Shown here in pieces: positions 12,790-60,111 of a DNA stretch of 64,000 nt. The position numbers were made by a program, and so were the translations under genes. The stretch is from a virus. Location: positions 32,001 to 96,000 of the IMG/VR virus record IMGVR_UViG_3300042090_002370; one strand, 5' to 3'. A model generated the notes under the pieces. It was given only the letters and a program-made list of their open reading frames with translations, had not been told where the DNA came from and searched no databases. The first letter of the stretch is position 1; every line of letters begins with the position of its first letter.

Positions 12790-12831
12790 TAGCTAGGAAA
12801 AAGAGCGCCGGGGTTGCCTGCCCCTACGCTC
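12790..12831 (-). terminator. Terminator T1: hairpin + TTTTTCC + TAGCTA
   Basis: GAGCG/CGCTC and GGGG/CCCC stem, then a U-tract and TAGCTA on the minus strand, 12 nt after the stop of 12844..13584. Confidence 0.65.
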
Positions 12832-12843
12832 GATTACCTAAGA

Positions 12844-13584
12844 CTACGGAACGGTCGTAGTCCATGTGCCACCCCAAGCGCCTTCGCAGTTCGACTGGTC
12901 TTGGTCGAGCGTGAGCTGCCCACTTGCCGCAGTGCTCGGAAAGCATGCCTCCGTCGTCTCTCCGCCAAATGGGATCTTGCAGCATCCGCCGAGGTCTAGC
13001 CCCTGACAAGATGGCGCTGGAGCCGCGCAGCCTACCGTGCCGCCAGACACTCCATTGCATCCACAATCGGCCGCGTTCAAACCTACTGCGTAGTCACACG
13101 CGTCGACCTGATTCACCGTACCTGTCCCGGCAACATAGCTTCCTGAGAAAGCCGGCCCAGGTCCGTTAGGCGCTGCGGTAGGGGGCCACGTAGGCGTTTC
13201 GGCAAGAACAAAGTCGGTGGGGTCTAGTACTGTGACAACGTATCGACCGTTCGCTGCAGGTACACCTTGTACGCCGTTTACAGTAATGCTCTGACCGGTG
13301 ACCGCCCCTGATGCCGTGGCCGTTTTGATCTGAATAAGCCCACCAGTGTAGCTCTGCACATTGACCACACTTGTTAGCGGGTTCCCCCAGTAGACACATG
13401 CCTGCCCTACTGGTGGGGTGTTTCCATTCAATGCCTGCTCAGGCGGTAATGGTGGAAGCGGGGCATACGGCGGCACGACGACGTCGTCCCTGCCCTCAGC
13501 CACAGGCGGCAGTTCGGCCGTGCAGTTGGGCAGAAGAAGAAGAAGTGCGACAAGCGACGAATACAGCGAGAGTGCTCTTTTCAT
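12844..13584 (-). CDS. Secreted / putative lipoprotein, Cys-rich
   Basis: Likely start MKRALSLYSSLVALLLLLPNC (GGAGG RBS): basic N-terminus, hydrophobic core, Cys at position 21. Pro-rich linker and Cys-rich C-terminal domain. Confidence 0.65.
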   Translation of the reverse strand: MKRALSLYSSLVALLLLLPNCTAELPPVAEGRDDVVVPPYAPLPPLPPEQALNGNTPPVGQACVYWGNPLTSVVNVQSYTGGLIQIKTATASGAVTGQSITVNGVQGVPAANGRYVVTVLDPTDFVLAETPTWPPTAAPNGPGPAFSGSYVAGTGTVNQVDACDYAVGLNAADCGCNGVSGGTVGCAAPAPSCQGLDLGGCCKIPFGGETTEACFPSTAASGQLTLDQDQSNCEGAWGGTWTTTVP

Positions 13585-13603
13585 GATGGGTTCCTCCACT
13601 ACT

Positions 13604-13612
13604 CTTATCCCC
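13604..13612 (-). promoter_or_regulatory. Phage-specific promoter motif P1 (GGGGATAAG)
   Basis: One of 7 intergenic copies of SGGRATAAG; followed after 6 nt by GGAGG and then ATG 13584. Confidence 0.75.
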
Positions 13613-13675
13613 GAAATGTGCAAAAACTTGCCTGGATGTAGGTCGCTAGGCTCCTTCGTTTCTTCTAGCGTCACG

Positions 13676-13684
13676 TGGTAACCT
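13676..13684 (+). promoter_or_regulatory. Extended -10 promoter (TGgTAACCT), leaderless
   Basis: TGn-TAACCT lies 8 nt upstream of ATG 13693; no SD. Confidence 0.5.
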
Positions 13685-13692
13685 TCCAGGCT

Positions 13693-14103
13693 ATGCCGCT
13701 GAACTCGCTGGACCAGATTCTAACCGTTCCAACGCTGTGCCTCATCATCGTTTTGGCCGTGATGACGCTGCTCCTGCGGAGATTGGCAGAGGCTGTCTGG
13801 CCAGTCCTTTCTTCTACGACGCCGCTGACGACCGCTCAGCGTGTCTGGGAAGAGTTCGTACTGCCGACCATCCCGGCGGCTATGGGTACGCTGTTCTGCT
13901 CGTTCGTGCCGATGAGCATGTACCCCTATCCAGCTGTAGCATCCGTAACGACGCTCTCCAGGATTCTCTACGGTTTCTCTCTTGGTTGGTTTTCTTCAGG
14001 CGGGTACCGTGGTATCTCCGCTGTCCTCAAGAAGAAGTGGAATATTAGCCTGCCTGGTGATACGGACCCGCCGCCGCGCTTGAACGGCACCGGCGGCCAC
14101 TAG
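13693..14103 (+). CDS. Holin-like membrane protein
   Basis: About 136 aa, three hydrophobic segments, basic C-terminal LKKKW. Confidence 0.5.
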   Translation: MPLNSLDQILTVPTLCLIIVLAVMTLLLRRLAEAVWPVLSSTTPLTTAQRVWEEFVLPTIPAAMGTLFCSFVPMSMYPYPAVASVTTLSRILYGFSLGWFSSGGYRGISAVLKKKWNISLPGDTDPPPRLNGTGGH

Positions 14104-14164: not shown

Positions 14165-15076
14165 ATGCGCAAAGACGTCACCATTCTCACAGGCGACCCC
14201 ACCATCGAGCTCATCGCCGCGATGAAGCTATTGCCTATCGGCATCGAGGCCATGATGGACTGGGTTCGCGTCCACCGGCCAGAGTGTCTGCCGGACGACC
14301 CCGAGGATCAGAGCTGGCGTTCGCTCTTCCCGCACGACCTCGAGGAGGCCACGGCGAATGCGAACGACTCCATGGTCGTGCAGAAGCGGCCGCTCACCGA
14401 CAACGAGCTCCTCGTCGAGCTCGCCGGCAGGAAGTGTTACGACTCCTTCGGGAAGAAGGCCGGCAAGAAGTCCAACAGCGAGTACATCAAAAACACGCAG
14501 CAGGGCGACATCCCGCACGCCAGCATCCTCTACCACGCCAAGCTCAGCTTCTTCTTCGCCGGCATCTCCCGCCGGGTTAGCCACGAGCTCATCAGAAACT
14601 ATGTGGGCGCCGACCGTGATGAGGAGGGAGCTCCGTCGCAGGAATCCACGCGCTTCACGCACCACTACGGGTTCTTTATCTGCCCACCGCGTTATCTCGG
14701 CTCTGACGCCTTCTGGGATGCTGCCGCTGCCTCTGGCGTACGCCAGCACTTCGAGCAGTCCATGCAGTTGGCGTACGACAACTACCTCAAGGCCGTGGAG
14801 CTCGAGGTGAAGGAGTTTGAGTTACGGTATGGCAAGCCACCCACCAGCATCGACAAGAAGCGCATCTACGAGGCCGCCTCGAGCTTCCTGCCGCACCAGG
14901 CCGAGACCAGCTTCATCTGGACCACGAACCCAGCAGCCATCGCGAAGCTGGTACGTGAACGGGCGAACAACGCCGCCGACCTAGAAATACAGCGTTTCGC
15001 TCGGAAGCTTCGGCGCGTTGCAGTCGACTACTGCCCCAATTTATTTCCGCAAGTTTGGATGCAATCAACGGATTAG
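14165..15076 (+). CDS. thyX: Flavin-dependent thymidylate synthase (ThyX family), variant motif
   Basis: AGRKCY, HASILYH, GISRRVSHELIR, SQESTRF and AADLEIQRFA motifs. GAGGAGG RBS before ATG 14165. Confidence 0.8.
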   Translation: MRKDVTILTGDPTIELIAAMKLLPIGIEAMMDWVRVHRPECLPDDPEDQSWRSLFPHDLEEATANANDSMVVQKRPLTDNELLVELAGRKCYDSFGKKAGKKSNSEYIKNTQQGDIPHASILYHAKLSFFFAGISRRVSHELIRNYVGADRDEEGAPSQESTRFTHHYGFFICPPRYLGSDAFWDAAAASGVRQHFEQSMQLAYDNYLKAVELEVKEFELRYGKPPTSIDKKRIYEAASSFLPHQAETSFIWTTNPAAIAKLVRERANNAADLEIQRFARKLRRVAVDYCPNLFPQVWMQSTD

Positions 15077-15117
15077 CTGATTGGATAGACCTTGTAACAA
15101 AGAAAGAGGAGTAGAAC

Positions 15118-15423
15118 ATGGCGGCGGAACCCTCTAAGGCGGAACAACCGGTTATTGGAGTACGTCCTGTAGTGCAGGACAAGGCCCTCAACGGGGCTGC
15201 AGCAGCCAAGCCGGACGCCTTCGCCCCTCTGCGGGAGTTTGTCGAGCAGATGGTGAAGGACGCACGTGAGGAGGGGCGCAAAGCTGGCGTGGTTGAAGGT
15301 CGTGTGTTGGGCTTGCGACGGGCCTGTACGCTACTAGGCATTGCGATGAGCAAGCTCTCAGTGGATGACAGGAACAAGCTCGCCGGCGCACTCGAGGACG
15401 TTGAGCACGAGCTCGTAAAGTAG
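15118..15423 (+). CDS. Hypothetical protein
   Basis: Strong GAGGAG RBS; 101 aa helical ORF between thyX and terminator T2. Confidence 0.7.
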   Translation: MAAEPSKAEQPVIGVRPVVQDKALNGAAAAKPDAFAPLREFVEQMVKDAREEGRKAGVVEGRVLGLRRACTLLGIAMSKLSVDDRNKLAGALEDVEHELVK

Positions 15424-15465
15424 AAGAGGTGGGCCCGCGAGGGCCGGGCCCCCTTCTTTTAGCTA
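15422..15465 (+). terminator. Terminator T2: hairpin + TTCTTT + TAGCTA
   Basis: GGGCCCG/CGGGCCC stem followed by CCTTCTTTTAGCTA. Confidence 0.8.
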
Positions 15466-15489
15466 CGTGTTGGATGCATACTGTTCTTC

Positions 15490-20513: not shown

Positions 20514-23366
20514 ATGAGCCACGCATGGGTCGGCCAATGGGGTGCGCTGGCCGTCCCTGCGGGGTGGTGGGGCGGTGCGGTAGGCGTCGCCACGCCTTCG
20601 GCTACCGGTTGGTTCGATCCCGAGCTTCTACGTCTGCCGTCGACTACGGCGTCACTGACTGGATCTATCCCAACATCAGAGGCGCTAGGCGCCTTCATTA
20701 TGACGGTTGTGCTCACGTTGCCTGGCATACCGAGCGGAGAGGGATGGTCTAAGGCTTCGCTGACGTATGGGGTTAGCGCATCAGGTATTGCTAGCGCAGA
20801 GGTTTTGGGGGCACCGAATGTAGGGGGGGCACTGTCACCGTCCGGCGTTTCTAGCGCCGAGGCCGTGGGTGCAGAGAAGACAACGTACGGGCTCACACCA
20901 GTTGGAATACCGTCATCAGAAGCGCTGGGTGCTGAAACTACGACGAGCGTGCTCGCGCCCTACGGCGTTTCTTCCGAAGAGAGGCTCGGCGCCGAAACTG
21001 TAACAGTTGGTATATCACCGCCAGGTGTGGCGACTGCGGAGTCCTTGTCGAAGGCCGGTACGACTTTGGGCGTGTCTACGTCTGGCATCGACAGCGCCGA
21101 GCGTGTTAGCGCTCCGACTACCTCGACGGTACTAGCACCAACCGGAATAAGCTCAGCTGAGTCTCTACCAGGCACCAGCACTACTTCTGGTCTTTCACCA
21201 TTCGGTATTGCGACATCTGAGGTTGTTGGCCAACCGAACGTAGGATGGGCTGTAGACGCCAACGGTATTCCGACCGCTGAAGGGCTAGGTGCAGGTACGC
21301 TTTCTGCTGCGCTCACTCCATCAGGTATCGATACTGCTGAGTCGTTACCGACAGCAAGTACTACAACTGCAGTATCTGTCGCTGGTATCTCGTCGGCTGA
21401 GACCGTTGGTGCTGGCGGTGTGGCGTCGCCACTGAACCCACCAGGAATCCCTAGTGCTGAAGCGCTGGGTGCGGAAACAGTCGCTTTCACAGGTACTGTT
21501 ACAGGTATTGACTCTGCCGAGTCGCTGCCCGGTGCGCGTACTACATTGGGTATCGCTACGTCGGGCGTAGCCTCCGCTGAGGTTGTCGGTGCGCCAAACA
21601 CTGGCTGGGCGGTAAACGCTACAGGCGTACCTACTGCTGAGGCCATCGGCGCAGAGACGGCAGTACTCTCTGGGTCTGTGCCTGGTATCGCAACAAGTGA
21701 GGTGCTGGGCGCACCAGCTACTGCATTGCAGGTCTCCGTGGCTGGAATTGCATCTGCAGAGGCCGTTGGAGCAGAGGATGTCTCGCCAGCGCTCTCACCA
21801 CCGGGTATTTCTACAACCGAGGCACTCAGCGCGGAGAAAGCCACAGTCACACTTTCGCCTTACGGGATATCTAGCTCGGAGGCTGTTGGTGCGGAGACGC
21901 TGTCGAGCTCGCTCGCGCTTTCAGGGATTGCTACGACGGAGATTATAGGAGCGCCGAATACAGGCCCTGCGCCAGCACCGGCAGGCATACCTACCGCAGA
22001 GGTTTTGGGCGCCACAACATCCAAGACCGTTTTGTCGGTGTCTGGGATCAGCAGCGCGGAAGCCCTCTCACCTTCGCCCATTTCTTTCGTGCTAGCGCCC
22101 AGTGGAATACCAACAGCGGAAGCGCTTGGTGCTGAGAACGTACTCATTGCGTATACGTTGTGGGGCATTGCTTCTGAGGAAAAGCTTGGCGCTACGACGT
22201 CGTCTAGCACCCTCAAAGGTTTTGGTATCGACTCCGCTGAGGTGCTGGGCCAGTCAACCACTGCGCGTACAGCGTTCATCTCAGGGATTATCGGTAGTGA
22301 TGAGGCATGGGGGTATGGAAAGACAACACAGGGTGTCAGCGTTGCCGGCATTTCTTCTACAGAAGCGCTTTCGGCTGCGAGCACTACTCAGTGCGTTTCC
22401 ACAAGCGGTATTGCCAGTAGCGAAGCTCTTGGCGCACCCGATGTCGGGTGGGCTCTACAGCCGGCTGGCATTTCGACCGTTGAGTCATTGGGCGCAGAGA
22501 AGATAACGCTGACGCTCGCACCGTCCGGCATTTCCAGCAATGAGGCCGTAGGCGCATCCGATGTGGGCCATGCGATATCGCCAGGCGGTATTCCTAGTGC
22601 CGAAGCGGTATCCAAGAGCGCTGTCTCTATTACGCTGTCCCCGTACGGCATCGGTTCCAATGAGGCGCTGTCAGGCGCGTCGGTTGCGCAGTCGTTCACC
22701 TTCTTTGGTATTGATAGCGTCGAGCGTGTGGGAGCGCCGAATGTTGGTTGGGCGCTGTCGCCGTCAGGGGTCGCATCAGCAGAGTCCGTCAATGTACAGA
22801 GAACAACCGCAACTTTCACGCTTGTTGGGATAGGAAGCGCTGAGGCTGTGGGTAGTATGAGTACCGGTCCAGCCATACGCATTGCTGGAATACCGGCAGC
22901 TGAGTCGGTTGGCTATTCCACGGTTTCAATTGTGTTGACTCTGCAAGGTATCTCCTCTCAAGAGGTGCTTTCGGAGCCGTCTGCTACGCAAGCGTCGGCT
23001 GTCGCCGGCATCGCAAGCGATTCAGTAATCGGTGCGGGCACCGTTCAGATTATTCTCGCGAACGTTACCGCTACAGGTGAGTGGATACAGTACACGTACC
23101 TCTCTGGCACTGGGGCTTCGATCGGGTACAGACAACCCAGCTTTATCTCCCTCGTGAGTGGTGCAAAAGGCATCGGTGTTCGGCCTACGTCGCGACCGGT
23201 TCAAGTTCCTGTGGCGGCACCCACATCGCCGGCTCCCCCTCAAGGCCCCGCACCGGTGTCTGGCAAGGATATGCTCCCCCCGACGATTAGCGTACCGCGC
23301 GTACAACTTCCAGAGCCGGCACCAGAGGGTCCGCCACAAGGGCCGGCACCGACCCGCCGACGATGA
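20514..23366 (+). CDS. Virion protein made of about 40 tandem 20-aa repeats with a Pro-rich C-terminus
   Basis: Repeat G(I/V)x(S/T)xExxG/S at a 20-aa period; GGAGAGGG RBS. Confidence 0.75.
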   Translation: MSHAWVGQWGALAVPAGWWGGAVGVATPSATGWFDPELLRLPSTTASLTGSIPTSEALGAFIMTVVLTLPGIPSGEGWSKASLTYGVSASGIASAEVLGAPNVGGALSPSGVSSAEAVGAEKTTYGLTPVGIPSSEALGAETTTSVLAPYGVSSEERLGAETVTVGISPPGVATAESLSKAGTTLGVSTSGIDSAERVSAPTTSTVLAPTGISSAESLPGTSTTSGLSPFGIATSEVVGQPNVGWAVDANGIPTAEGLGAGTLSAALTPSGIDTAESLPTASTTTAVSVAGISSAETVGAGGVASPLNPPGIPSAEALGAETVAFTGTVTGIDSAESLPGARTTLGIATSGVASAEVVGAPNTGWAVNATGVPTAEAIGAETAVLSGSVPGIATSEVLGAPATALQVSVAGIASAEAVGAEDVSPALSPPGISTTEALSAEKATVTLSPYGISSSEAVGAETLSSSLALSGIATTEIIGAPNTGPAPAPAGIPTAEVLGATTSKTVLSVSGISSAEALSPSPISFVLAPSGIPTAEALGAENVLIAYTLWGIASEEKLGATTSSSTLKGFGIDSAEVLGQSTTARTAFISGIIGSDEAWGYGKTTQGVSVAGISSTEALSAASTTQCVSTSGIASSEALGAPDVGWALQPAGISTVESLGAEKITLTLAPSGISSNEAVGASDVGHAISPGGIPSAEAVSKSAVSITLSPYGIGSNEALSGASVAQSFTFFGIDSVERVGAPNVGWALSPSGVASAESVNVQRTTATFTLVGIGSAEAVGSMSTGPAIRIAGIPAAESVGYSTVSIVLTLQGISSQEVLSEPSATQASAVAGIASDSVIGAGTVQIILANVTATGEWIQYTYLSGTGASIGYRQPSFISLVSGAKGIGVRPTSRPVQVPVAAPTSPAPPQGPAPVSGKDMLPPTISVPRVQLPEPAPEGPPQGPAPTRRR
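20661..23040 (+). repeat. Degenerate 60-nt coding tandem repeat (about 40 units)
   Basis: Units such as GIASAEVLGAPNVGGALSPS, GVSSAEAVGAEKTTYGLTPV and GIPSSEALGAETTTSVLAPY; diverged at the DNA level. Confidence 0.85.
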
Positions 23367-23404: not shown

Positions 23405-23615
23405 AGGGCGTGATGCAAAGGCAACGCAGACCCTGAATCCGCTTATGGGCTACGCGATGCCTGATATCGCCAGTCTTCGCGTTCACGGCCATCACCGGCC
23501 CGTCCACGGGGGGAAGATGAAGCACGACGTGGAATTGACGCCGGGTGCCGGGTGCCGGTGGTCGCGTGGCTCCAGGCGTAGACGCGAGTCCCGCTCTCTG
23601 CACTAAGAACCCGGG

Positions 23616-23647
23616 TAGCTAAAAAAGAGGGCCCGTTGGGGCCCCCT
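23616..23647 (-). terminator. Terminator T3: hairpin + U-tract + AGCTA (ends replication operon)
   Basis: GGGCCC/GGGCCC stem then TCTTTTTTAGCTA on the minus strand, immediately after the stop at 23650. Confidence 0.8.
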
Positions 23648-35106: not shown

Positions 35107-35134
35107 CCAACGCGAGACAATGTGCAGCCCCGCG

Positions 35135-35160
35135 GAGCTAAAAAAAGGCGGCGCAGGCCG
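35135..35160 (-). terminator. Terminator T4: short hairpin + TTTTTTT + AGCTC
   Basis: CGGC/GCCG stem, U7 tract, AGCT; embedded in a larger structured intergenic region. Confidence 0.65.
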
Positions 35161-35269
35161 GACCGTCAACATGGCTCCGTTTTCGAAGCCATGTCAACGT
35201 GCCGAAGCCCCTTTTTTCTCGTGTCTTGTGGTGGCCCACAGCCGTAGCCACTAGGGGTTGTGGACGAGC

Positions 35270-40181: not shown

Positions 40182-40187
40182 TAAGAT
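40182..40187 (+). promoter_or_regulatory. -10 box TAAGAT, leaderless
   Basis: 7 nt upstream of ATG 40195; no SD. Confidence 0.55.
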
Positions 40188-46400: not shown

Positions 46401-46852
46401 AAATGCAGGGGCAGGGTGGAGGTCCAGGTGGCGCCGGCGGCGAAGGCGCGATGCGGACAATGCCTGTGGAGATGCAGGCCGCTGGGGCCGGCGCGAGCGG
46501 TATGGCTGCGCCACCCGCGCAGCCTACGGACCCGTCGCCGCAGGACTTTCTCTCGTCGGTCTCGAGCCAGCTTACGGGTGAGACGAGACTGAACCAGGAG
46601 CAGAGCCAGAAGGGTATTGACCTTCCCACTTATGCGATGGGCCAAGCAAAGCTACTCGTAACGATGGCTAAGCCTCAGCAGGAACAGGCCCTGAGAAACA
46701 TTCAGGCGATGAGCCCGGAGCTCGCCGACCTGGTGAAGCAGATGCTGGCTGAACTGCAGCCGCAGGAGCAGGCTGATAGCGGTAGTGCTGGCGTAGACAC
46801 GCGACCTCTACCGCAACAGCGTCCACCGCGACGAGCGGGCGGGATGGTGTGA
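43487..46852 (+). CDS. Portal protein containing an intein
   Basis: NPLINAVVFKLSEY, DYFAYGN, WNPEDI, FHMRR...RGWGTPLLLPVL, ILNGMGVP: portal-like. Intein at aa 319-751; Q/G/P-rich C-terminus. Confidence 0.7.
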   Translation: MSFVGPGGAVASGPASGLRFAQSRGRIQGSNVTGVNYPSPFFDVAHTYLPVTVKAMFKWCRYYFLTNPLINAVVFKLSEYPVTDIIIDHPSNEVKRRWTDYFQDHLRWQPFRVEAGLDYFAYGNGCISLGFPFKKYLYCKNCAFRDEAGKIRAQWIFTSFQFRLTCPKCGYVGDALAKDFYYKNASGIKTIRWNPEDIEITYNDISGEYTYFYTIPATVRNDIVIGRKDIVEGVPQVFIQAMREQKGVIFSKDNFFHMRRPTLATQDRGWGTPLLLPVLKDTFYLQVMKKAQEAILLEHIVPLRVLFPQAGSGSSDPYCVSPETLVETPSGLLPAAEVREGEFLRSHTGAWRRVEYQKRRQIKPAEKVFKFQIASLPAFPFAVSEDHPILAVPRVSRKKPRAGLVDPTFIEAKALKKGDYVAYPIKRQIRRGQMLDLADYVTERAATDSWVYRRLSQSAAEAYEWLEQNADPVHAWGERKKLLEEKGWSEADYATAAAARREPKVDRVSRFLPMCPALGSLIGYYLSEGSYGGSTVSFSLHLEEKDFAELIESAVKRLGFRGVSHYERPEQHGRTVVIEDVILSELLVSMCGSGFAEKRIPDVVSEASDVIVLDMLRALFNGDGCDFKTTTDRVGLKLANPSMIMEARRLLLSFGLIGGVVKEEPTATTKFRTTSYQLNYNGHAAYKLRHLFGRPGGFDWQELPQKSGLVRGDYVLLRIDAVHEVADVPEVIGFQMAEDKSFCVAGVATHNTTINLIDWRDQVAAEIARWRYDNNYIPIMPLPLGNQTIGGDGRALMLTQEITTWSDQILNGMGVPVEFIRGGLSYAGTNVSMRMMENMFLGYISRQKALAKFVMKQVSSFLGWPEANIRFKPFKMADDLQRKAYLFQLNQANKVSDTTLLADSDLDQDEENEIMIRETDKRIEATKKQQLAMARIQGEAQQIMMKFQTKAQQDAQQAMGAPAAPGEPGGIEMQGQGGGPGGAGGEGAMRTMPVEMQAAGAGASGMAAPPAQPTDPSPQDFLSSVSSQLTGETRLNQEQSQKGIDLPTYAMGQAKLLVTMAKPQQEQALRNIQAMSPELADLVKQMLAELQPQEQADSGSAGVDTRPLPQQRPPRRAGGMV
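44441..45739 (+). mobile_element. Intein with LAGLIDADG homing endonuclease (433 aa)
   Basis: Block A CVSPETLV, block B SEDHPIL, LAGLIDADG motifs LIGYYLSEGS and MLRALFNGDG, terminal ATHN followed by Thr. Confidence 0.93.
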
Positions 46853-46902
46853 CCGGCCGTCAGCCGCGAGCTGCTCGCCAGGCGGAGCGTAAGGCGAACA
46901 GG

Positions 46903-46934
46903 TAGCTAAAAAAAGGGGCGGCACTGCCGCCCCT
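46903..46934 (-). terminator. Terminator T5: hairpin + TTTTTTT + AGCTA
   Basis: AGGGGCGGCA/TGCCGCCCCT inverted repeat adjoining the stop of 46934..47155. Confidence 0.85.
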
Positions 46935-47155
46935 CATTTGCATGATTCCTCGACGATGGCTTCGGCGAGGTCGACGCGCCACTGTTCATCGAGGCGCTTT
47001 CGGTCCTCGTAGGTCTGGTAGGGAACTGAGAGGAGGAACCGGTAGCAGCGGCTGACGCTCTCCGGCGACCGGTCCTCCACTTGGTTAGGTCCTGACCATA
47101 TCCAGCGACCGCGATCGTTCCACCAGTACCCGGTATGCGGGAACCATGTGCGCAT
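46934..47155 (-). CDS. Hypothetical protein (Trp-rich, 73 aa)
   Basis: Coupled to the VWA gene stop; ends at T5. Confidence 0.6.
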   Translation of the reverse strand: MRTWFPHTGYWWNDRGRWIWSGPNQVEDRSPESVSRCYRFLLSVPYQTYEDRKRLDEQWRVDLAEAIVEESCK

Positions 47156-49862: not shown

Positions 49863-49870
49863 GTTGGTCT

Positions 49871-51387: not shown

Positions 51388-51435
51388 CGGCGGTGCGTTT
51401 TTTGGTGTCGTTGGCCTTATGCCGGACGGCATGAG

Positions 51436-54400
51436 ATGATTGCAGCGGCCATGGCGTATTTGGACCCCAAGAAGGCGTTCGAACACCTGAAGGAACGCGT
51501 GCTCGAGGGCATACAGGACCAATTTGCCAAGAACCCCATTGTCGGGAAGAAGCAGTCGCTGCACCTTGAGGCGCTCGAAGTACGCGACAAGTTAGGTGAG
51601 GCAGACGACATCCGCGCACAGCACAAGGCAAAGGTGGAGAACGACACCTGGGCGGTGCCTATTTATGCCACACTGGCGCTCAAGGATAACGAGACCGGAA
51701 AGGCGTTAGACCGTCGAACTATCCGCATCGCGGAGATTCCGAAGACGACTAACAGGCACTCGTACATCATCGATGGGCAGGAGTATCAGGTCAACAACCA
51801 GTGGCAATTGCGGCACGGCATTTATGTAAAGCGCCGTGTGAACGGTGAGCTTGAGGCTGCGTGCAACGCGGGTCGCGGGTTCGATGTTGTGCTGGACCCG
51901 GCAACCAAAGTCTTTCGAATGGAGCACGGTAAGAGCCGCGGTAAGCTCCCCATCTACCCATTCCTCAAGACGCTTGGTGTGAGCGACGAAGATCTCATGA
52001 AGTCGTGGGGCAAGGAGATGTTCGAAGCGAATCAGAAGGCGCCGAAGTCGGACATTGCGCTCGAGAAATTCTACAAGGCGGATAAGCCGTGGGCAGGTAC
52101 TCCAACCAAGGAGGTCGCTGCCGAGCACTTCTACGACATGATGGAGAAGACGCATCTCCGTCCAGAGTCCACGCAACTCACGTTAGGGCGGCCCTTCACG
52201 CATGTATCCGGCGAGGCGCTGAAGCTCGCAACTGAGAAGATGCTCAAGGTACAGGCGGGGCACCCAGAGGATGACCGCGATTCACTGGTCTTCAAGGATC
52301 TACGTACCGCCGGTGACTTCGCCTATGACGCCATTCTACATCAGCGCAAGAATATTGAGACACGTGCCGGGCGACAGATCGACAAAGCAAAGGACGCCTA
52401 TGACGTCATGAAGTTCGACATGTTCAACAAGCCCATCAAGGGGGCGTTGTCCTCAGCGAACGCGGCGGCTATGCCGGCATCGCAGATCAATCCACTAGAG
52501 ATGGCGTCGTCTGCGATGCAGACTACTATCATGGGCGCAGGCGGTATTCGTACCGCGCAGCAGGTACAGCATGAAGCGAAGTTTGTGAATCCCAGCCATC
52601 TCGGTTTTCTTGATCCGCTCAACACACCGGAGGGTGAGAAAACAGGTGTCACATTGCGGCTGCCTATCGGTGTACGCAAGGTCGGGCACGAGGCGAAGAT
52701 TCCTCTCTACAACCTGCTCTCCAAAAAAACCGAGCTTGTCTCTCCAGGCGAGTTCATGGAGGCAAACATCGTCCTGCCAGATCAGGTGAAGTGGGAAGAT
52801 GGCGTACCGCATCCGCTGCACCATACAGTTCGCGCGAGCTCTAAGGGCAACGAGATTCGCGACGTGAAATTCGAGGATGCGCACTACGTTATGCGCAGCC
52901 CTTCTCAGCTTTTCAACATGACTTCGAACCTCATTCCATTCCTGGCGAACACGAGCGGTAACCGCGCGTCTATGGCGAGCAGGCATATGGAACAGGCGGT
53001 CTCGCTCTTGCATCGTGAGGCCCCACTTGTCCAGGTAGGTACAGGCTCCGACAAGGAAGGCATCGACACCTTCGAGAACATCATGGGCTACCAGGCGTCC
53101 CACGCTGCTTCGGAAGAAGGCAAAGTTGTAGCAGTGAACAGGGACGGCATTATCATTGAAGACCGCCTTGGTAAGAAGCACGAAGTTCAGCTCTACAACA
53201 ACTACCCGCTCAATGACGCCAAGAGTGTGATGCACTCTACACCCGTTGTCGCCGTCGGCGATCATGTGAAGAAGGGTCAGCTCATTGCAGACACGAACTT
53301 CTCCAAGAATGGGACGCTCGCTCTCGGCACGAACTTGCGCGTCGCGTACCTGCCCTTCAAAGGGTACAACTTCGAGGACGGTGTTGTCATTAGTGACAGC
53401 GCTGCCAAGAAGCTCTCGAGTGAGCATCTGCAGAAGCTGATGATGCCACTCGACCAGGAGACCATACTCGACAAGAAGCGCTTCCACATCTCCAACCCCG
53501 GGTTGATGACGAAGGAACAGTACGAGAAGATGGACTCGAACGGCATAGTGCGGGTGGGGCAGAAGGTCCAGCCAGGCGACCCGCTCGTTGCAGCGATGCG
53601 ACCGTACAAATTGAAGGACCGTACGGGTATGGCGGCTGTGCGCAAGGCCATGGGCGGTCGGCACGATGACCGCAGCATGCGGTGGGACAGCGACTTCGAG
53701 GGCGAGGTCGTAGGCGTACATCGCAGCGACAAAGGGCTGACCGTTCATGTTCGCACGGTCGAGCCTATGCAGGTCGGCGACAAGATCAGTAATCGTTATG
53801 GTGGGAAAGGTATCGTCACCAAGATTCTGCCCGACCCTGAGATGCCGCACACGAAGGACGGTAAGCATATAGAGGTAGCGCTAAACCCCAGCGGCATACC
53901 GGGGCGCATGAACGTGGGGCAGGTCTTCGAGACCTCCGTCGCCAAGATCGCCGAGAAGACCGGCAAGCCCTACATCGTGAAGAACTTCGACACGAACATG
54001 GACGTCATCGCCAAGGTCCAGGCTGACCTGAAGGCGCACGGGCTCTCGGACACCGAGGAGCTCAAGGATCCTGCGACTGGGCAGATCCTTGGGCAGGTGA
54101 CGGTGGGGCCGCAGCACATCTTCAAACTCGTTCACCAGATCGACAAGAAGCTTGCAGTGCGCAGCGGCAGTGGGACCCTGCCTGGGGCAGCGGCGGAGCA
54201 TTACGACTTGAATCTGCAGCCCATGGGTGGCAAGAGCACTGGCGGGCAGTCGATGGGCACGCTGGGGCTCTTCGCGCTCCTGGCGCACGGCGCCAAAGCA
54301 AACATCCGGGAGATGCAGACATACAAGTCGGAGGGCCCGGACCCGCAGACCGACCCGGCGAAGAGGTGGCCGAGCGACCACCACCGGATCTGGGCAGCCA

Positions 54401-57400
54401 TTCAGACTGGGCACCCACTACCGACGCCCAAGCCGACTTTTGCTTACCGCAAGTTCGAAGACATGCTACGCGGGAGTGGCATCAACATCGAGAAGAAGGG
54501 GCATGACCTTATCCTCTCGCCAATGACGGACCAACACATACGAGCGCTGGCGAAGAACGCACTGCCGCACCCTGCGGACATGCTGAACTCGAAGATGGAC
54601 AAGAACGGAGACCCTAAGCCTAAGGCCGGTGGGCTCTGGGATGAGAAGCTTACTGGTGGGTTGGGCGGTCGTCAGTGGACGCGAATCGAGCTATCTGAAC
54701 CGCTGCCAAACCCCATCTTCGAGAAGCCTATCAAGGCACTGACCGGGCTCTCTCCAAAAGACTTTAATGCTGTTCTGCATGGAAGTAAGGGCGTCACGGC
54801 GAATGGCAACATCACGGAGGCCGGCGCCGGCGTAACTGGCGGAGCGGGCATCAAGGTTTTGCTAGACCGCGTCAACGTTGCGCGCGATCTCGCCAAGGCC
54901 GAGGCTCAGCTGAAGATCGTCAAGGGGCAGAGCGTCGACCGTGTACTGAAGAAGGTAAAGTACTTGCGGGCGCTCAAGCAGATTGGGGTGACCCCAAGCG
55001 AGGCGTACATCCTTCACAACATCCCTGTCATGCCGCCCATCATGCGACCGGTATCGAAACTGCCGGATGGGTCACCTAAGTTCGACGATATCAACCAGCT
55101 CTATTCCGACTTCGCGAAGATCAACGATAAGTTGAAGGACCCCATCTTGGTGAGGAATCTCACTGACGAGGGGAAGTCGGATCTCCGCAAGGACTTCTAC
55201 GACGGCGCCAAGATGTTCATGGGCATGGGGCTCCAGTACGGAGATGCCAAGCACAAGGGGCTACTGCACCAGATTGCCGGCAGCTCACCGAAACACGGCT
55301 ACTTCCAGGACAAGCTCATCGCCCGCAAGCAGGATCTGACGATGCGCTCGACCATCGTCCCCGAGCCAGGTCTCGATTTGGATGAGGTGGGTCTGCCGAA
55401 GCACGCCGCGCTCGAGCTTTTCAAGCCCTTTGTCGTTCGCCAGCTCAAGCAGATGGGCGCCATACAGAACGAGGTGCAGGGCGCGGCCTTTGTAGAGAAG
55501 AAGAGCCCACAGGTCTGGCGTGCGCTCGATCGTGTGATGGCGGAGCGACCTATTCTCCTAAAGCGAGACCCTGCGCTGCACAAGTACAATGTGCAAGCCT
55601 TCCGTGCACGGCCTATTGAGGGCGACGCTGTGCGCATACACCCGCTCGTGACGGGCGGATACAACGCCGATTTCGACGGCGACACGATGAGTGCCTTCGT
55701 GCCCATCACGCACGATGCGGTGAACGAGGCCGTACGGATGTTCCCCTCTCATAACCTCTTCAGCGAGGCGACTGGCCGGCTTATGTACCAGCCGACGCTC
55801 GAGAGCGCCCTCGGACTCTACAAGCTGTCGGTAGTTGGTAAGGACTCCGGGCAGAAGTTTGAGCACGCTGGCCTGGCACTTGACGCCGTGCGTTCGGGGA
55901 AGCTTGGGTATACCGATGTCGTACACATCGGTGGCAAGAAAACCACGCCGGGGCGCATTCTGCTCTCCAGCGCGGTTCCGGAGGCTATGCAGAGCGAGAT
56001 GCTGCATGATCTTCACTATCGAATCGACGGTAAGTCAGCGGGCCTGAGCGCGCTTCTGACAGGCATTGCTAAGCATTACGGCCCGCAGTATGGAGAGGTC
56101 GTCAACAAGCTGAAGGATCTCGGCAACACTACGACATTCGGAGCAGCAGCGGTTCCGCGGGCTACTAGCGCTGGGCACGCGATGTCTTTTAGCACGTTGG
56201 GTAAGAACCCAGTCGCAACACTCAATAAGAAGATGGATGTCTTCATCCCAGTTGGGGCGCACACACTCTCGCTTAAGGACTTCGAGCCGGACAAGGCGTC
56301 GAGGGACCACGTGCTGTCAGCAGCTCACAAGGTCGTAGAGAAATACGCCGACGACCCGAAAATGACTAAGGACGAGAGGGATCGCAGAACCATTGCCGTA
56401 TACGAACACGCCGCCGACGAGATGAAGGCCCTACATGAAAAGAAGGAAGAGAAAGACCCAAGCAACCTCTACACAATGTACAAGGCTGGCGTGAAGCCTG
56501 GCTGGGACCAGTACAAACAGATGGTTCTAGCACCCATGATTTACAAGGATTCCGCTGATCGGAAGATTCCGATACCTGTGACCAAGAGCTACGCAGAGGG
56601 GCTAGACGTAGGCAGCTACTGGACTCAGATGCACGGCGCCCGACGCGGTTCGGTCATGAAGGTGCAAGAGGTCAGCGGTCCAGGCTATCTATCCAAGTTG
56701 CTCATGAACAACATGATGCACATTCTTGTGAACTCTCCTGATTGCGGGACGAGCAAGGGCATCGTCCTGGACGCCAATGAGGCAGATATTCATGATCGAT
56801 ACCTGCAGCAGGAGTTCACACACGGCAAGGTTACTTTTCCTGCGGGTACGCTACTCACCCCAAGCGTTGTCGGGAAGATCCGAGCGGCGAAGAAGGACGC
56901 CAAGCTGCTTGTACGAAGCCCGCTGAAATGCGAGGACCCGAAAGGGATTTGCCAGATGTGCTCAGGGCTTGGCTCGAGTGGTCAGCACTACGACCTGGGG
57001 CACAATCTCGGCGTGCAGTCTGCACAAGCCGTTGGTGAACGCGGCATCCAGTTAGCGCTCAAGAGCTTTCATACAGGTGGCGTAGGCGAACACAAGGGCG
57101 GCTCGAAGCTGCTCAACTCCTTCGAGCGCTTCAAGCAGCTTATGTACTTGCCTGAGAAAGTTCAGGACGAGTCCTCCCTAGCGATGAAGACTGGGAAGGT
57201 TGAACAGATCGTGCCTACGTCAACAGGAGTTGACATCTTCATCGGCGGGCAGAAGCACCATGTGGGCCGCGATACGAAGGGCATGCCGCTGCATCAGCCG
57301 CTGCCAGGCGCAGAGGCGGTAGAGGGCTATGTCCACTGGAAGGTTCCGGTGGTCGGGCAGCACCTCAAGGCAGGGGACACGCTCTCCGACCCCAACCGTA

Positions 57401-57915
57401 CGCTGCTCAACCCCCATCATCTCTATGCGGCGACAGGCTCCATTGAGGAGGTACAGAATCACCTCACGAATGAGATCTACGGGCTCTACCAGAAGGAAGG
57501 CATCAAGCGTCGAGCCATTGAAACGGTCGTGCGCGCGATGAGTAACCTAACCAAGGTCAATGACCCTGGCGAGCATCCCGATGTCCTCCGCGGTGAGTTC
57601 TACCCGCTGGCACAGGTGCAGCATATGAACCAAGAGCTGCTGCGCAACAAGAAGCGGCCTATCGAACACGAGCCGGTGATGAAAGGCATCAGCGCTATGC
57701 CTCATGCCCTCATTGAGGATTGGATGGCGAAGTTGCAGCATGAACATCTGCGAACGACGCTCACTGAGGCCGCGGCGATGGGCGGCATTTCCCACCTCCA
57801 TTCTACTCACCCGATTCCAGCCATTGCTTTCGGCGCCGAATTCGGGCTTACTTCCAAGGACGCGCTAAAGCCAGGGCATGAACACTTACGTGATGTGCCG
57901 GCGCATTACTACTAG
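51436..57915 (+). CDS. rpoBC: Single-chain DNA-directed RNA polymerase: fused beta-beta' subunits
   Basis: Beta motifs: YIIDGQE, NTPEGEKTG, LIPFL...NRASM, GYNFED, GDKISNRYGGKG, NPSGIPGRMNVGQ, GGQSMG. Beta' motifs: PVMPPIMRP, LELFKPF, catalytic NADFDGD (55663-55683), bridge helix HGARRG, trigger loop LKSFHTGG. No stop between the two halves. Start at 51436 or 51451. Confidence 0.96.
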   Translation: MIAAAMAYLDPKKAFEHLKERVLEGIQDQFAKNPIVGKKQSLHLEALEVRDKLGEADDIRAQHKAKVENDTWAVPIYATLALKDNETGKALDRRTIRIAEIPKTTNRHSYIIDGQEYQVNNQWQLRHGIYVKRRVNGELEAACNAGRGFDVVLDPATKVFRMEHGKSRGKLPIYPFLKTLGVSDEDLMKSWGKEMFEANQKAPKSDIALEKFYKADKPWAGTPTKEVAAEHFYDMMEKTHLRPESTQLTLGRPFTHVSGEALKLATEKMLKVQAGHPEDDRDSLVFKDLRTAGDFAYDAILHQRKNIETRAGRQIDKAKDAYDVMKFDMFNKPIKGALSSANAAAMPASQINPLEMASSAMQTTIMGAGGIRTAQQVQHEAKFVNPSHLGFLDPLNTPEGEKTGVTLRLPIGVRKVGHEAKIPLYNLLSKKTELVSPGEFMEANIVLPDQVKWEDGVPHPLHHTVRASSKGNEIRDVKFEDAHYVMRSPSQLFNMTSNLIPFLANTSGNRASMASRHMEQAVSLLHREAPLVQVGTGSDKEGIDTFENIMGYQASHAASEEGKVVAVNRDGIIIEDRLGKKHEVQLYNNYPLNDAKSVMHSTPVVAVGDHVKKGQLIADTNFSKNGTLALGTNLRVAYLPFKGYNFEDGVVISDSAAKKLSSEHLQKLMMPLDQETILDKKRFHISNPGLMTKEQYEKMDSNGIVRVGQKVQPGDPLVAAMRPYKLKDRTGMAAVRKAMGGRHDDRSMRWDSDFEGEVVGVHRSDKGLTVHVRTVEPMQVGDKISNRYGGKGIVTKILPDPEMPHTKDGKHIEVALNPSGIPGRMNVGQVFETSVAKIAEKTGKPYIVKNFDTNMDVIAKVQADLKAHGLSDTEELKDPATGQILGQVTVGPQHIFKLVHQIDKKLAVRSGSGTLPGAAAEHYDLNLQPMGGKSTGGQSMGTLGLFALLAHGAKANIREMQTYKSEGPDPQTDPAKRWPSDHHRIWAAIQTGHPLPTPKPTFAYRKFEDMLRGSGINIEKKGHDLILSPMTDQHIRALAKNALPHPADMLNSKMDKNGDPKPKAGGLWDEKLTGGLGGRQWTRIELSEPLPNPIFEKPIKALTGLSPKDFNAVLHGSKGVTANGNITEAGAGVTGGAGIKVLLDRVNVARDLAKAEAQLKIVKGQSVDRVLKKVKYLRALKQIGVTPSEAYILHNIPVMPPIMRPVSKLPDGSPKFDDINQLYSDFAKINDKLKDPILVRNLTDEGKSDLRKDFYDGAKMFMGMGLQYGDAKHKGLLHQIAGSSPKHGYFQDKLIARKQDLTMRSTIVPEPGLDLDEVGLPKHAALELFKPFVVRQLKQMGAIQNEVQGAAFVEKKSPQVWRALDRVMAERPILLKRDPALHKYNVQAFRARPIEGDAVRIHPLVTGGYNADFDGDTMSAFVPITHDAVNEAVRMFPSHNLFSEATGRLMYQPTLESALGLYKLSVVGKDSGQKFEHAGLALDAVRSGKLGYTDVVHIGGKKTTPGRILLSSAVPEAMQSEMLHDLHYRIDGKSAGLSALLTGIAKHYGPQYGEVVNKLKDLGNTTTFGAAAVPRATSAGHAMSFSTLGKNPVATLNKKMDVFIPVGAHTLSLKDFEPDKASRDHVLSAAHKVVEKYADDPKMTKDERDRRTIAVYEHAADEMKALHEKKEEKDPSNLYTMYKAGVKPGWDQYKQMVLAPMIYKDSADRKIPIPVTKSYAEGLDVGSYWTQMHGARRGSVMKVQEVSGPGYLSKLLMNNMMHILVNSPDCGTSKGIVLDANEADIHDRYLQQEFTHGKVTFPAGTLLTPSVVGKIRAAKKDAKLLVRSPLKCEDPKGICQMCSGLGSSGQHYDLGHNLGVQSAQAVGERGIQLALKSFHTGGVGEHKGGSKLLNSFERFKQLMYLPEKVQDESSLAMKTGKVEQIVPTSTGVDIFIGGQKHHVGRDTKGMPLHQPLPGAEAVEGYVHWKVPVVGQHLKAGDTLSDPNRTLLNPHHLYAATGSIEEVQNHLTNEIYGLYQKEGIKRRAIETVVRAMSNLTKVNDPGEHPDVLRGEFYPLAQVQHMNQELLRNKKRPIEHEPVMKGISAMPHALIEDWMAKLQHEHLRTTLTEAAAMGGISHLHSTHPIPAIAFGAEFGLTSKDALKPGHEHLRDVPAHYY

Positions 57916-57920
57916 GAGCC

Positions 57921-59195
57921 ATGCTGAATTGGGCATCGAAATTTCGCACGTCGATGACGAGCGTGGCTGGTCATGGGCCGGCTAAGATTTGCCAAGGGCG
58001 CATCGTCAACATCAATCTGCTCAAGTGGACGGTCGATGTTATCGCGCAATTCGACAGGAAGCGTTACTTCAACATCCAGGTGAGCTCGCCATATCTGCAC
58101 CATGCCAGCGGCGAGGGCATCTACGTCATGCCTGAGGTCAATGCGACCGTCATGGTCTGCATCCCCTCGGACAGCACGGCGCCCTTCGTTCTAGGTTTCA
58201 TTATGCCGACTGAGACCGTCGACTCCTCTACGGACGACGCGCCTCTCGGTACGACGCAGCACGCTCAGGCACCGGCGAACGCGACTGACTCCTCCTATGC
58301 CGCCGGACGCACAGCGAATCCTGGTGACATCGTTATGCGCTCGAGGGACAACAACTTTGTCATTCTGCATCGAGGGGGCGTGCTCCAGGTGGGTGCGACT
58401 CCGCTCGCGCAGCGCCTCTATATCCCTCTGCAGAATCTCGTGATGGACATCAGCGAGAACTATGAGCACCAGAATTCTGGTGGTGCCATCAAGTGGGGTA
58501 TACAGGAAGGCCCTTCGCAGACGACGCACCCCACGCAGTTCGTCCAAACCTTCCGTGTCTTTGCCGAGAATCAGTACGCGGACGTGCGCGTGACGTGCGG
58601 CGACATCACCGGACCATACGGGGACCCAGACGGCGGTGTTGCCGCTGCTGCGGATGGCTTGGGGCAGAAGAACAACACGGCTACAGCTAGCAACTGCGTT
58701 CTCTTCGAGATCGCCGTTACACCGCAAGGCTTCAACGTCAGCACTGGCGTGCCCAACGATGTTCCGGTTTCAGCGTCTACCTTCCGCTTCGCCTACGACA
58801 GAACTGGCAACGTTTTTTTACGTAATGCCGGCAACTTCTCCCAGCAAACGCAGGGTAAATACACGCTTTCGGTAGTCGGTGACCTCAGCGTTTCTTCGCA
58901 GGGTGTCGTGGAGCTCACATCACCCAAGAGCGTCAAGATCAACGGCGGAAAAGAGACGGACATTATAGGGACTGTCGTACGGCTGAATGCTGGGAAGAAC
59001 GCCGTGGCCTCTAAGGGCGACATGGTGCGTATCGATGTCGCAACCACTACGCCATTACAGGTCGGGCCGACTCCTATCCCGGTTGTCGGCTCTCCAACCG
59101 GCCCGTGGAGCATCGCTCCTGGAACACCCATCATCTTGACTGGCACGCTCTGGGGTTCGATTGTTGTCTGCCAAAACAGTTCGGTGCTGACGTGA
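57921..59195 (+). CDS. Baseplate central spike (gp5/gpV-like OB fold + beta repeats)
   Basis: AGGAG RBS; GRIVNI...VMPEVNATVMV...FVLG OB-fold pattern; PGDIVM; C-terminal beta-strand repeats and VASKGD. Confidence 0.6.
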   Translation: MLNWASKFRTSMTSVAGHGPAKICQGRIVNINLLKWTVDVIAQFDRKRYFNIQVSSPYLHHASGEGIYVMPEVNATVMVCIPSDSTAPFVLGFIMPTETVDSSTDDAPLGTTQHAQAPANATDSSYAAGRTANPGDIVMRSRDNNFVILHRGGVLQVGATPLAQRLYIPLQNLVMDISENYEHQNSGGAIKWGIQEGPSQTTHPTQFVQTFRVFAENQYADVRVTCGDITGPYGDPDGGVAAAADGLGQKNNTATASNCVLFEIAVTPQGFNVSTGVPNDVPVSASTFRFAYDRTGNVFLRNAGNFSQQTQGKYTLSVVGDLSVSSQGVVELTSPKSVKINGGKETDIIGTVVRLNAGKNAVASKGDMVRIDVATTTPLQVGPTPIPVVGSPTGPWSIAPGTPIILTGTLWGSIVVCQNSSVLT

Positions 59196-59809
59196 CCGTA
59201 CAGTTCGTAGAAGAGCTCTCGCTCGGTGAGCTGATGCCGGGGATTGTTCTTCTCATCCCACCACTGCTTGCCGGCTTCGATCTTGTTCTCACTGGGCCGT
59301 TCGGTCTTGGGACACTGCTAGCGGATGTCTCGGTGCAGCTCGCGGCGTCGATCTCAATTCAGGTGCAGATAGGGCTGCAGATATCGAACCCCTTTGCCGC
59401 TATTGAGGCGCAGCTTGCAGCGTTAGTACAAATTCAAGCGACGCTAGAGGCCTCGCTTTCTCTGGGGCTGCCTTCAGTAGCTGTTGGCTTCTCGGCATCC
59501 TTGAGCGCTAATGCTGCCATTGCGGCGTCCCTTGGCGCTCAGATTGGTGGTATTCAAGCGCTCATTCAAGCCTCCTTGGCATTGAAGATTCCAATCGTTT
59601 CCCTACTGGCTGCGCTGGAGGTCGGTCCAGCGGACCTCTTCACGGTCGGCTTCGATACGCCGGACAACATCAATGACATCGGTGCAGGTATACTCTCAGC
59701 TCGGCTGTCGCCCGGTTGCACGCTTGCGGACACCCCCGTCTACGGCGTCATCTTGCTCACCAACGGCGCTGCGGTACAGGCCAGCATGGGCCTCATCTTC
59801 AATCCGTAG
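59192..59809 (+). CDS. Hydrophobic Ala/Leu-rich virion protein
   Basis: GTG start overlapping the upstream stop (GTGA). Confidence 0.6.
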   Translation: MTVQFVEELSLGELMPGIVLLIPPLLAGFDLVLTGPFGLGTLLADVSVQLAASISIQVQIGLQISNPFAAIEAQLAALVQIQATLEASLSLGLPSVAVGFSASLSANAAIAASLGAQIGGIQALIQASLALKIPIVSLLAALEVGPADLFTVGFDTPDNINDIGAGILSARLSPGCTLADTPVYGVILLTNGAAVQASMGLIFNP

Positions 59810-59839
59810 CTAAAAAGAAGCGGGTTGTGCCCGCTTCTT
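59807..59839 (-). terminator. Terminator T6: hairpin + U-tract + AGCTA
   Basis: AAGAAGCGGG/CCCGCTTCTT inverted repeat; minus strand ends CTTCTTTTTAGCTA. Confidence 0.85.
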
Positions 59840-59845
59840 CGCGCC

Positions 59846-60083
59846 TCAGCGCGTTTCGGCCAGGTGCATCGAGTAGAGGATGGTTATGAAGACGCGCTCC
59901 GCACTTCGGACGATGACACCGGGCTTCTCGTGATTGTAGTTCACGAGGTCTGAGCGCACGCTCGGGTCCTTCAGAAACACGATACCTGGCTTGTGCGCCA
60001 GCCACTCGTTTGTCTCCTTCTCTACGACGTCAGGGGGCTCCGAAGAAGAACTTGATCTGCGGTTTGGGATGAAATTCGGACAT
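59846..60083 (-). CDS. 78-aa protein split by a +1 frameshift at CCC_TGA (programmed, or a 1-nt insertion)
   Basis: GGAGG RBS, MSEFHPKPQIKFFFGAP then stop. The +1 frame continues PDVVEKETNEWLAHKPG...ITILYSMHLAETR to TGA 59846, just before T6. Confidence 0.55.
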
Positions 60084-60102
60084 GGTAGGTACCTCCATCA
60101 TC

Positions 60103-60111
60103 CTTATCCCG
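60103..60111 (-). promoter_or_regulatory. Phage-specific promoter motif P7 (CGGGATAAG)
   Basis: Followed after 6 nt by GGAGG and then ATG 60083, the same geometry as P1. Confidence 0.75.

Follow-up and report, generated by a model that had tools for sequence, protein, structure and literature searches.

The RNA polymerases encoded by phages are of several kinds: single-subunit enzymes (T7 and N4), sigma-less fragmented multisubunit enzymes (phiKZ-like phages) and divergent two-barrel enzymes (crAss-like phages, YonO and P23-45). The N4 virion polymerase is a T7-like single-subunit enzyme that acts on DNA hairpin promoters without a sigma factor, and a second phage polymerase serves the middle genes. 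The mReC lineage of phage polymerases has been described by phylogeny (Weinheimer and Aylward 2020), in a paper in which a term search finds no "promoter", "virion" or "sigma" (PMC7481178). In the Salmonella phage Arash, mass spectrometry of virions found the polymerase gp206 to be the most-detected protein (3516 spectra), together with gp216 (1210 spectra) and the sigma factor gp10 (100% coverage); by term search, the words "promoter" and "terminator" are absent from that report (PMC10585845). Here we analyze a 64,000-nucleotide stretch of viral DNA, bases 32001-96000 of the IMG/VR contig IMGVR_UViG_3300042090_002370 (the window, to which all positions refer unless marked "genome"), which encodes a fused beta-beta' RNA polymerase, and in which blocks of non-structural genes are opened by one recurrent motif (P) and closed by another (T). 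An earlier reading of this sequence, hereafter the original prediction, had proposed that the fused polymerase is made late, packaged, and reads P and T as early signals, with host polymerase transcribing the late genes. Our results partly support this proposal: P and T have the behavior expected of signals belonging to a single private transcription system that serves the non-structural genes. A phage sigma factor, which the original prediction had no means of seeing, is very probably part of that system.

The contig under study (G000), classed as linear, is 163,859 bp long with a GC content of 58.8%, and CheckV puts its completeness at 88%. A megablast search with 24 kb of the window found no relative at the DNA level in the phage collection, and no Rfam family was found in the window. 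Six IMG/VR loci carry a polymerase with 59-67% identity to that of G000. Two relatives were analyzed as whole contigs, G001 (a complete genome) and G004, their polymerases being 62-67% identical to that of G000; L-numbers below denote loci or segments. The nearest isolates by polymerase are the Vibrio phages D69 (whole record, W01), D181 and D148 and the phage Arash, at 30-33% identity (33% for Arash).

The motif SGGRATAAG has eight matches in the window against 0.82 expected, a number that none of 100 shuffles reached. Seven of them are intergenic, lie 15-45 nt ahead of a Shine-Dalgarno (SD) sequence and start codon, and are oriented with the downstream genes, which bears out the claim that this motif opens non-structural units. 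The eighth (21143..21151, + strand) falls inside a 950-aa minor-tail gene and is probably a chance match, because it lacks the flanking boxes described next; the original prediction had left it out of its count. With the third base relaxed, the whole genome contains 23 intergenic GGnATAAG sites, all oriented with downstream genes. Their alignment reveals that P is bipartite and longer than nine bases, GCAA-N16-GGnATAAG-N5-YG: the upstream box at -20 to -17 is G in 17, C in 18, A in 17 and A in 20 of the 23 sites, and downstream there is a purine at +8, a pyrimidine at +13 (22/23) and a G at +14 (22/23), the last usually being the first G of the SD sequence. Both the GCAA box and the Y-G positions are outside the pattern used to pick the sites. 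Depending on the register chosen for the hexamer (GCAA at -20 to -17, nATAAG at +2 to +7), the spacer between the two boxes is 16-18 nt. From this arrangement P reads as a promoter with sigma-70 geometry, in which about 17 nt separate a -35-like box from an extended -10-like element, GG-n-ATAAG, with a predicted start at Y(-1)/R(+1), 7 nt downstream.

The sites are not all alike. In both G000 and G001 a tight cluster of P copies with perfect GCAA boxes precedes tiny ORFs, and looks like an immediate-early region, judging by its layout; the replication-type units of the two genomes have poorer -35 boxes. From this difference we infer that promoters of the single P class are graded in strength or timing.

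P is kept in relatives. At the six related loci, a GGRATAAG-like motif occurs in the same place as in G000, the divergent region upstream of the polymerase gene, with GCAAG 16 nt upstream of it in four of the six; the logo in L002 reads GGGAACAAG. Across whole contigs, P has 29 matches in G001 against 10 for the control pattern, and 18 against 3 in G004. G001 is syntenic with G000, and its orthologous MoxR/VWA, helicase/UDG, replication and thyX units each keep P, the helicase/UDG unit also keeping a TAGC-tailed terminator at its end. In the more distant Arash there are 36 copies of GGNATAAG on the minus strand, which carries the non-structural genes, versus 7 on the plus strand and 7-8 for controls; 30 of the 36 are GGTATAAG. 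At the positions conserved in G000, the Arash logo shows CCAA (-20 to -17, weak) and T-G/A (+13/+14).

The closing signal is equally regular. All six terminators of the window (T1-T6) are where the original prediction had placed them, and consist of a hairpin and a T-run followed by TAGCTAC, or by AGCTCC at T4. Five of the six hairpins are more stable than shuffled sequences (z -2.2 to -4.2), the hairpin of T4 being weak (z 0.02); the stable GC-rich stem and U-tract at the 3' end of a unit, as in intrinsic terminators, are thereby present throughout with the reservation for T4. Genome-wide, 13 intergenic sites combine a hairpin and T-run with (C)TAGC, usually TAGCTAC, directly after the T-run, and 10 of them reach -18 kcal/mol or stronger, while the (C)TAGC tail occurs in only 2 of 191 weak intragenic hairpin candidates. 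T-run plus YTAGC is enriched in all five genomes scanned, with 11 versus 2 in G000, 4 versus 0 in G001, 4 versus 1 in G004, 5 versus 2 in Arash and 6 versus 0 in D69, and in Arash and D69 the T-run plus AGC tails are found on the non-structural strand only. One hairpin is of another type, although no other intergenic hairpin in the genome is as stable (-29.7 kcal/mol; L029:11380-11432, genome about 107380-107432): it follows the major head gene, and its tail reads TTCGTTTCTACTAG, without the usual T-run-TAGCTAC.

On the unit map of the genome, 14 of 16 TAGC-tailed terminators close a P-bearing unit; of the other two, one closes a unit that starts off the contig, and one a short P-less unit after the major head gene. 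The pairing of P with T and the flipping of both with the strand of the unit, predicted from the window, are correct on this map, and the pairing is therefore a rule of the whole genome. Several P units on the plus strand stand directly upstream of structural units with T between them, and thus the terminators would act as insulators of structural genes. Inside the window the P units encode ThyX; a DnaB-like helicase, primase, PolA and a RecA-like protein; an SF2 helicase and UDG; and AAA/MoxR-like and VWA-metallopeptidase proteins. Outside it they encode NT5C, RNase HII, a glycosyl/sulfotransferase, an HNH endonuclease and many small ORFs. Units without P encode tail-fibre, minor-tail and virion structural proteins, the major head protein, and the portal, recognized from its homology to Arash gp204. 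The scan of the full genome and of polymerase-bearing relatives supports P and T as real signals, paired, confined to non-structural units and kept across the clade, both motifs recurring in G000 (23 P, 16 T), G001, G004 and Arash.

The fused polymerase is a 2159-aa ORF (51436..57915, +), with no P in front of it. It matches RNA_pol_Rpb2_6 (1.9e-58, residues 560-911) and Rpb1_2 (1e-24), and carries the Mg-binding motif NADFDGD (N1399-D1405), invariant in the five polymerase sequences compared, as well as a conserved segment after the motif LPVIPPVMRP, which would correspond to the beta' clamp helices. Against solved beta' chains it matches that of Mycobacterium (E 4.5e-89), and is closer to bacterial beta' than phiKZ-type enzymes are. 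Beta and beta', which in the bacterial enzyme are two chains that assemble on an alpha dimer and omega, are here joined in this single ORF, and both G000 and the complete G001 have one polymerase gene per genome.

That this single-chain polymerase would read P alone, as originally proposed, is probably not the case, given that P has a two-box geometry of sigma-70 type and that G001 and G004 encode a sigma factor orthologous to Arash gp10. Arash has two sigma-70-family genes, gp10 (with regions 2 and 3) and gp196, and the complete G001 has one. The G004 sigma is 48% identical to that of G001 and 37% to gp10; it matches Sigma70_r3 (3.3e-13) and weakly region 4 (0.079), region 2 being undetected by Pfam. 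A Sigma70_r2 ORF is present in D69 as well. Counting from the ortholog of G000 gene 207, the sigma gene comes 3-6 genes further on in both G001 and G004, whose sequence continues past this point; the G000 contig breaks off about 550 bp beyond gene 207, within a P-opened unit. Because of this synteny and the position of the contig end, the G000 sigma gene is expected in the missing 12% of the genome. A weak match to gp10 at genome 26.7-27.1 kb (E 0.14) was considered as a G000 sigma and rejected, the ORFs there having no Pfam match.

We modelled the G004 sigma as a complex with residues 1010-1420 of the polymerase, and obtained a score of 0.76, compared with 0.00 for the best of three controls; this score is reached by 58 of 80 solved complexes and by 2 of 110 mismatched pairs. 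Agreement between runs covers at least 29% of contacts, with a partner pLDDT of at least 68, and the modelled interface brings the beta' clamp helices (1210-1242) against sigma residues 34-77. Such a model expresses likeness to solved bacterial holoenzymes, which may be remembered by the predictor, and is no proof of binding.

Structural genes appear to follow different rules. The original prediction had given the virion operons sigma70-like boxes, and this fails for the full consensus, which shows no excess (3 versus 4.4 expected, and 6 versus 6.6 expected); only a -10-like TAnnnT is enriched. Such a hexamer ends 4-14 nt before the start codon in 9 of 24 leaders of P-less units in G000 (P 3.5e-6), 4 of 19 in G001 (1e-4) and 2 of 15 in G004 (0.065). 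The first gene of the portal operon is preceded, 6-7 nt before its ATG, by TAAGAT in G000 (40182..40187, +, at 7 nt; a candidate -10-like hexamer of a second, late class) and by TAGGAT in both G001 and G004. In front of the polymerase gene stand TACGCT in G001 and G004, a TACGCT-type motif in L002, a one-base variant in L006, and in G000 the weak class-2-like hexamer TATGCC (51418..51423, +). Since several G000 structural operons have TACGCT or TAGGCT at the equivalent position, the polymerase leader of the relatives resembles those of structural operons. A search for a second motif by k-mer enrichment in P-less upstream regions returned only pieces of terminators and the reverse complement of P, and GTACGCTG and TAYGC showed no significant overall enrichment in these regions (8/72 versus ~7% expected). 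Taken as they stand, these leaders suggest that late mRNAs are leaderless or have very short leaders, and come from a -10-only promoter. In Arash, some plus-strand structural leaders (109247, 137629, 139405, and also 30631; L024, L025) carry CYTAAAATA, similar to T4 late promoters and back-to-back with minus-strand GGTATAAG; the plus strand has only four copies of this motif and the minus strand none, a number too small for any conclusion.

Our preferred reading, which we hold to be slightly better than an even bet, is that P is the promoter class of a phage holoenzyme formed by the fused beta-beta' core and a sigma-70-family ortholog of gp10. In the scheme that we infer, sigma region 4 would read the -35-like GCAA, and regions 3 and 2 the extended -10-like GG-n-ATAAG; the G at -7, and the purine at -12, would keep the host primary sigma off P. 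RNA would start at the conserved purine 7 nt downstream of the -10-like box, right at the SD sequence. By analogy with Arash, the holoenzyme would be made late, packaged and injected, and would then transcribe all non-structural units, beginning with the strong early promoters with perfect GCAA and continuing with the replication and nucleotide-metabolism units and their weaker -35 boxes. Transcription would stop at the GC hairpin and U-tract with its conserved UAGC(UAC) extension, terminators insulating the structural genes. The structural genes and the polymerase gene itself would use the low-information TAnnnT, 4-14 nt ahead of the start codon, and their mRNAs would be leaderless or nearly so. 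Of the original proposal that the polymerase is packaged and reads P and T, the paired signals stand, and the homologue in Arash virions (PMC10585845) lends indirect support to packaging in the present phage, where it would hold by analogy.

Several points weigh against the phage holoenzyme. The classical role of phage sigma factors is to redirect the core enzyme of the host, which is what the well-studied phage factors of the sigma-70 family all use (see also the review PMC7824862). No sigma gene was found in the G000 contig itself, either with Pfam regions 2, 3, 4 and 4_2 or by tblastn with the sigmas of G001, G004 and Arash, and in G001 the sigma gene is in a P-driven unit and not with the late genes. 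The Vibrio phage D69, despite its polymerase and sigma ORF, shows no enrichment of GGNATAAG over its whole record; the motif is therefore not tied to this polymerase family in every phage, and the promoter motif of D69 must differ. Regarding packaging, the Arash preparation lists 116 "virion" proteins, metabolic enzymes included, and its authors allow for carry-over of abundant proteins (PMC10585845).

The most probable alternative is that the phage sigma redirects the host core to P, as SPO1 gp28 and T4 gp55 do, the fused polymerase having some other job, such as late transcription from TAnnnT. The location of the G001 sigma gene in a P-driven unit suits this explanation, as does the polymerase gene, which has no P and shares its leader type with late genes. 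We nevertheless consider it unlikely: both the polymerase and gp10 are found in Arash virions (PMC10585845), a polymerase made late and left unpackaged could not start its own class, and the model puts sigma region 2 on the clamp helices of the phage beta', albeit as a likeness only. P is also conserved across phages of 53-64% GC, Arash (Salmonella) being the one whose host is known.

A less probable alternative still is that P is the phage version of a host-type early promoter and is read by the unmodified host holoenzyme. Its two-box geometry with a 17-nt spacer is of the right kind, and the Arash core is often T-GGTATAAG, near the extended -10 consensus TGnTATAAT. The details of the motif speak against it, however. 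Position -7, where sigma-70 strongly prefers T, is G in 23/23 G000 sites and in 21/21 aligned Arash GGTATAAG sites, a G set by the search pattern with T variants uncounted; with this pattern-fixed G in place of T, P does not conform to the -10 hexamer TAnnnT. Position -12 is A or G in 19 of 23 G000 sites, the A at -11 being kept, and the GCAA box bears no resemblance to TTGACA. A scan with the sigma-70 consensus picks up none of the P sites, and a single motif serves a Salmonella phage as well as phages with genomes of 59-64% GC. Finally, the nearly fixed spacing between P and TGGAGG in G000, and especially in G001, could also reflect a role of GGnATAAG at the RNA level, as a processing site or translation enhancer ahead of the SD sequence, which we think very improbable since the motif is at unit heads only and not before each gene, comes after terminators, has its conserved box 16 nt upstream, outside any plausible transcript, and in Arash lies at a longer and variable distance from the SD sequence.

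Returning to the window, family matches confirmed the predicted gene contents of the P units (ThyX, replication/recombination, helicase/UDG and MoxR/VWA). On the minus strand, P1 (13597..13632, -; GCAA, 16 nt, GGGATAAG and a predicted Y-G start) stands ahead of a 246-aa secreted or lipoprotein-like gene (12844-13584) that ends at T1 (12789..12832, -; GC hairpin, T-run and CTAGCTAC; z -3.0). P2 (14102..14137, +; GAAA box and GGAATAAG) opens the thyX unit (14165-15423; Thy1 9.4e-25), closed by T2 (15421..15466, +; hairpin, TTTT and AGCTAC; z -3.3), directly after which a structural unit begins at 15490. P3 (35091..35126, -) drives, in our reading, the 11.4-kb replication/recombination unit (23650-35061; DnaB-like helicase, primase, PolA and RecA-like), which runs to T3 (23615..23647, -; hairpin, T6 and AGCTAC; z -2.2). 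The helicase/UDG unit (35270-40111; ResIII 4e-18, UDG 6e-21) extends from P4 (40141..40176, -) to the terminator-like site T4 (35134..35166, -; T7 then AGCTCC, with the weak hairpin mentioned above), with P3 about 10 nt downstream. The MoxR-like/VWA unit has two predicted starts: P6 (51372..51407, -), divergent from the polymerase gene, precedes a 51-aa acidic ORF and then the unit, and P5 (51148..51183, -) would be a second start for its main part (46934-51063; DUF2201_N 9e-27, AAA_5); both lead to T5 (46902..46935, -; 10-bp GC hairpin, T7 and AGCTAC; z -3.3). An extra GGCATAAG occurs 37 nt upstream of P6 in the same orientation (51423-51416, -), overlapping the region just before the polymerase start codon. 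Lastly, P7 (60096..60131, -) and T6 (59806..59840, -; hairpin, T5 and AGCTAC; z -4.2) delimit a unit of about 290 nt with only 17-aa and 44-aa ORFs; this unit (59806-60131, -) has no Rfam match and may encode a small RNA or micropeptides.

The polymerase gene had been described as lying on the virion strand, directly upstream of the baseplate spike. Its position is as described: it lacks P and is beside the portal operon, whose 1121-aa portal protein (43487..46852, +) is homologous to Arash gp204, and the adjacency of portal and polymerase is common to G000 and Arash (gp204/gp206). The label of spike has as its sole basis a sub-threshold match to Phage_base_V (E 0.006) in the 424-aa gene 5 nt downstream of the polymerase (57921..59195, +). 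A PHROGs search with this gene gave no match, and its predicted fold (mean pLDDT 36) was too poor for a fold search. At the five related loci that cover the polymerase gene in full, the same gene follows it within 20 nt. In L006 the polymerase ORF (L006:10007-17944) is longer, ~2645 aa versus ~2160 elsewhere. A C-terminal fusion to the downstream virion gene was ruled out, because the last 514 residues are still beta' and the extra length is internal; the ~500 additional residues are possibly an intein or an inserted domain.

Outside the window, a P-driven unit with NT5C and RNase HII contains a 447-aa glycosyltransferase-sulfotransferase fusion (Sulfotransfer_4, 4.5e-33; L028:4048-5391, genome 24048-25391), with DNA or the cell surface as its possible target of modification. 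At L028:6614-7522 (genome 26614-27522), three small ORFs follow one another in different frames, and each contains the peptide L-[VI]-[DN]-[VI]-A-E-Q-R-I-[LC]-G, with no Pfam matches. The P-driven single gene at genome 118498-119313, considered as a sigma-like late factor from a weak region-4 match in its G001 ortholog, turned out to be an HNH endonuclease (HNH_3, 5e-13; L030:2468-3350, genome 118468-119350). It is located among the structural genes but has a GGTATAAG promoter and a TAGCTAC terminator to itself, and by this organization looks like a free-standing homing-endonuclease cassette that uses the signals of the phage.

As far as the searched literature shows, the promoter/terminator grammar, the sigma-type architecture with G at -7 and the UAGC extension are undescribed. 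They place a polymerase close to the bacterial core in the company of a sigma-70-family factor and of conserved promoters and terminators, and provide defined templates for the biochemistry of an uncharacterized enzyme family with a cultured member, Arash. More tentatively, and with the balance still tilted against it, a widespread and mostly uncultured group of phages may inject a complete bacterial-type holoenzyme (fused or split beta-beta' with its own sigma) that is orthogonal to the host, its promoters hidden by the -7 G and its terminators needing UAGC. This suggests that a one-base change at -7 would be a simple way to keep a bacterial-type enzyme orthogonal to that of the host. The P and T signals would also improve the annotation of transcription units in many uncultured phage genomes.

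Among known systems, coliphage N4 is similar in the proposed logic, a packaged polymerase reading private early promoters, and in N4 the late genes are left to the host sigma-70 enzyme. The components differ: the G000 enzyme is of bacterial beta-beta' type, its proposed promoter is a sigma-type two-box element, and there is one polymerase gene. Jumbo phages of the phiKZ/AR9 type likewise encode two-barrel polymerases of cellular type and package one set of them, whereas G000 has one fused chain, much closer to bacterial beta/beta' (4.5e-89), and probably a sigma-70-family factor with it. With the sigma cascades of T4 and SPO1 the system would have in common a phage sigma with promoters of its own and the separation in time of non-structural from structural genes, but those phages use the host core enzyme and encode no polymerase. 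The terminators are like canonical intrinsic terminators in having a GC hairpin and then a U-tract at unit ends, and unlike them in that the U-tract runs straight into (C)UAGC(UAC), a feature conserved between G000, Arash and D69. We know of no requirement for such an extension in a bacterial polymerase; if the terminators do need it, UAGC would be a determinant of termination with no known counterpart among cellular-type polymerases, and its role after the U-tract is a question that these phages raise. The mReC lineage, also known from uncultured Caudovirales in IMG/VR and metagenomes, has bacterial-like beta and beta' (PMC7481178), a likeness by description and not by tree. The closest counterpart is Arash, which has a homologous polymerase beside the portal, homologous helicase, portal and some structural genes, GGnATAAG on the non-structural strand and T-run-AGC tails; it differs from G000 in that its polymerase is split into gp206 and gp216, ~4.8 kb apart, where G000 has a single chain, and in that its promoter core is GGTATAAG with a weak CCAA box, where G000 has GGRATAAG with a strong GCAA box.

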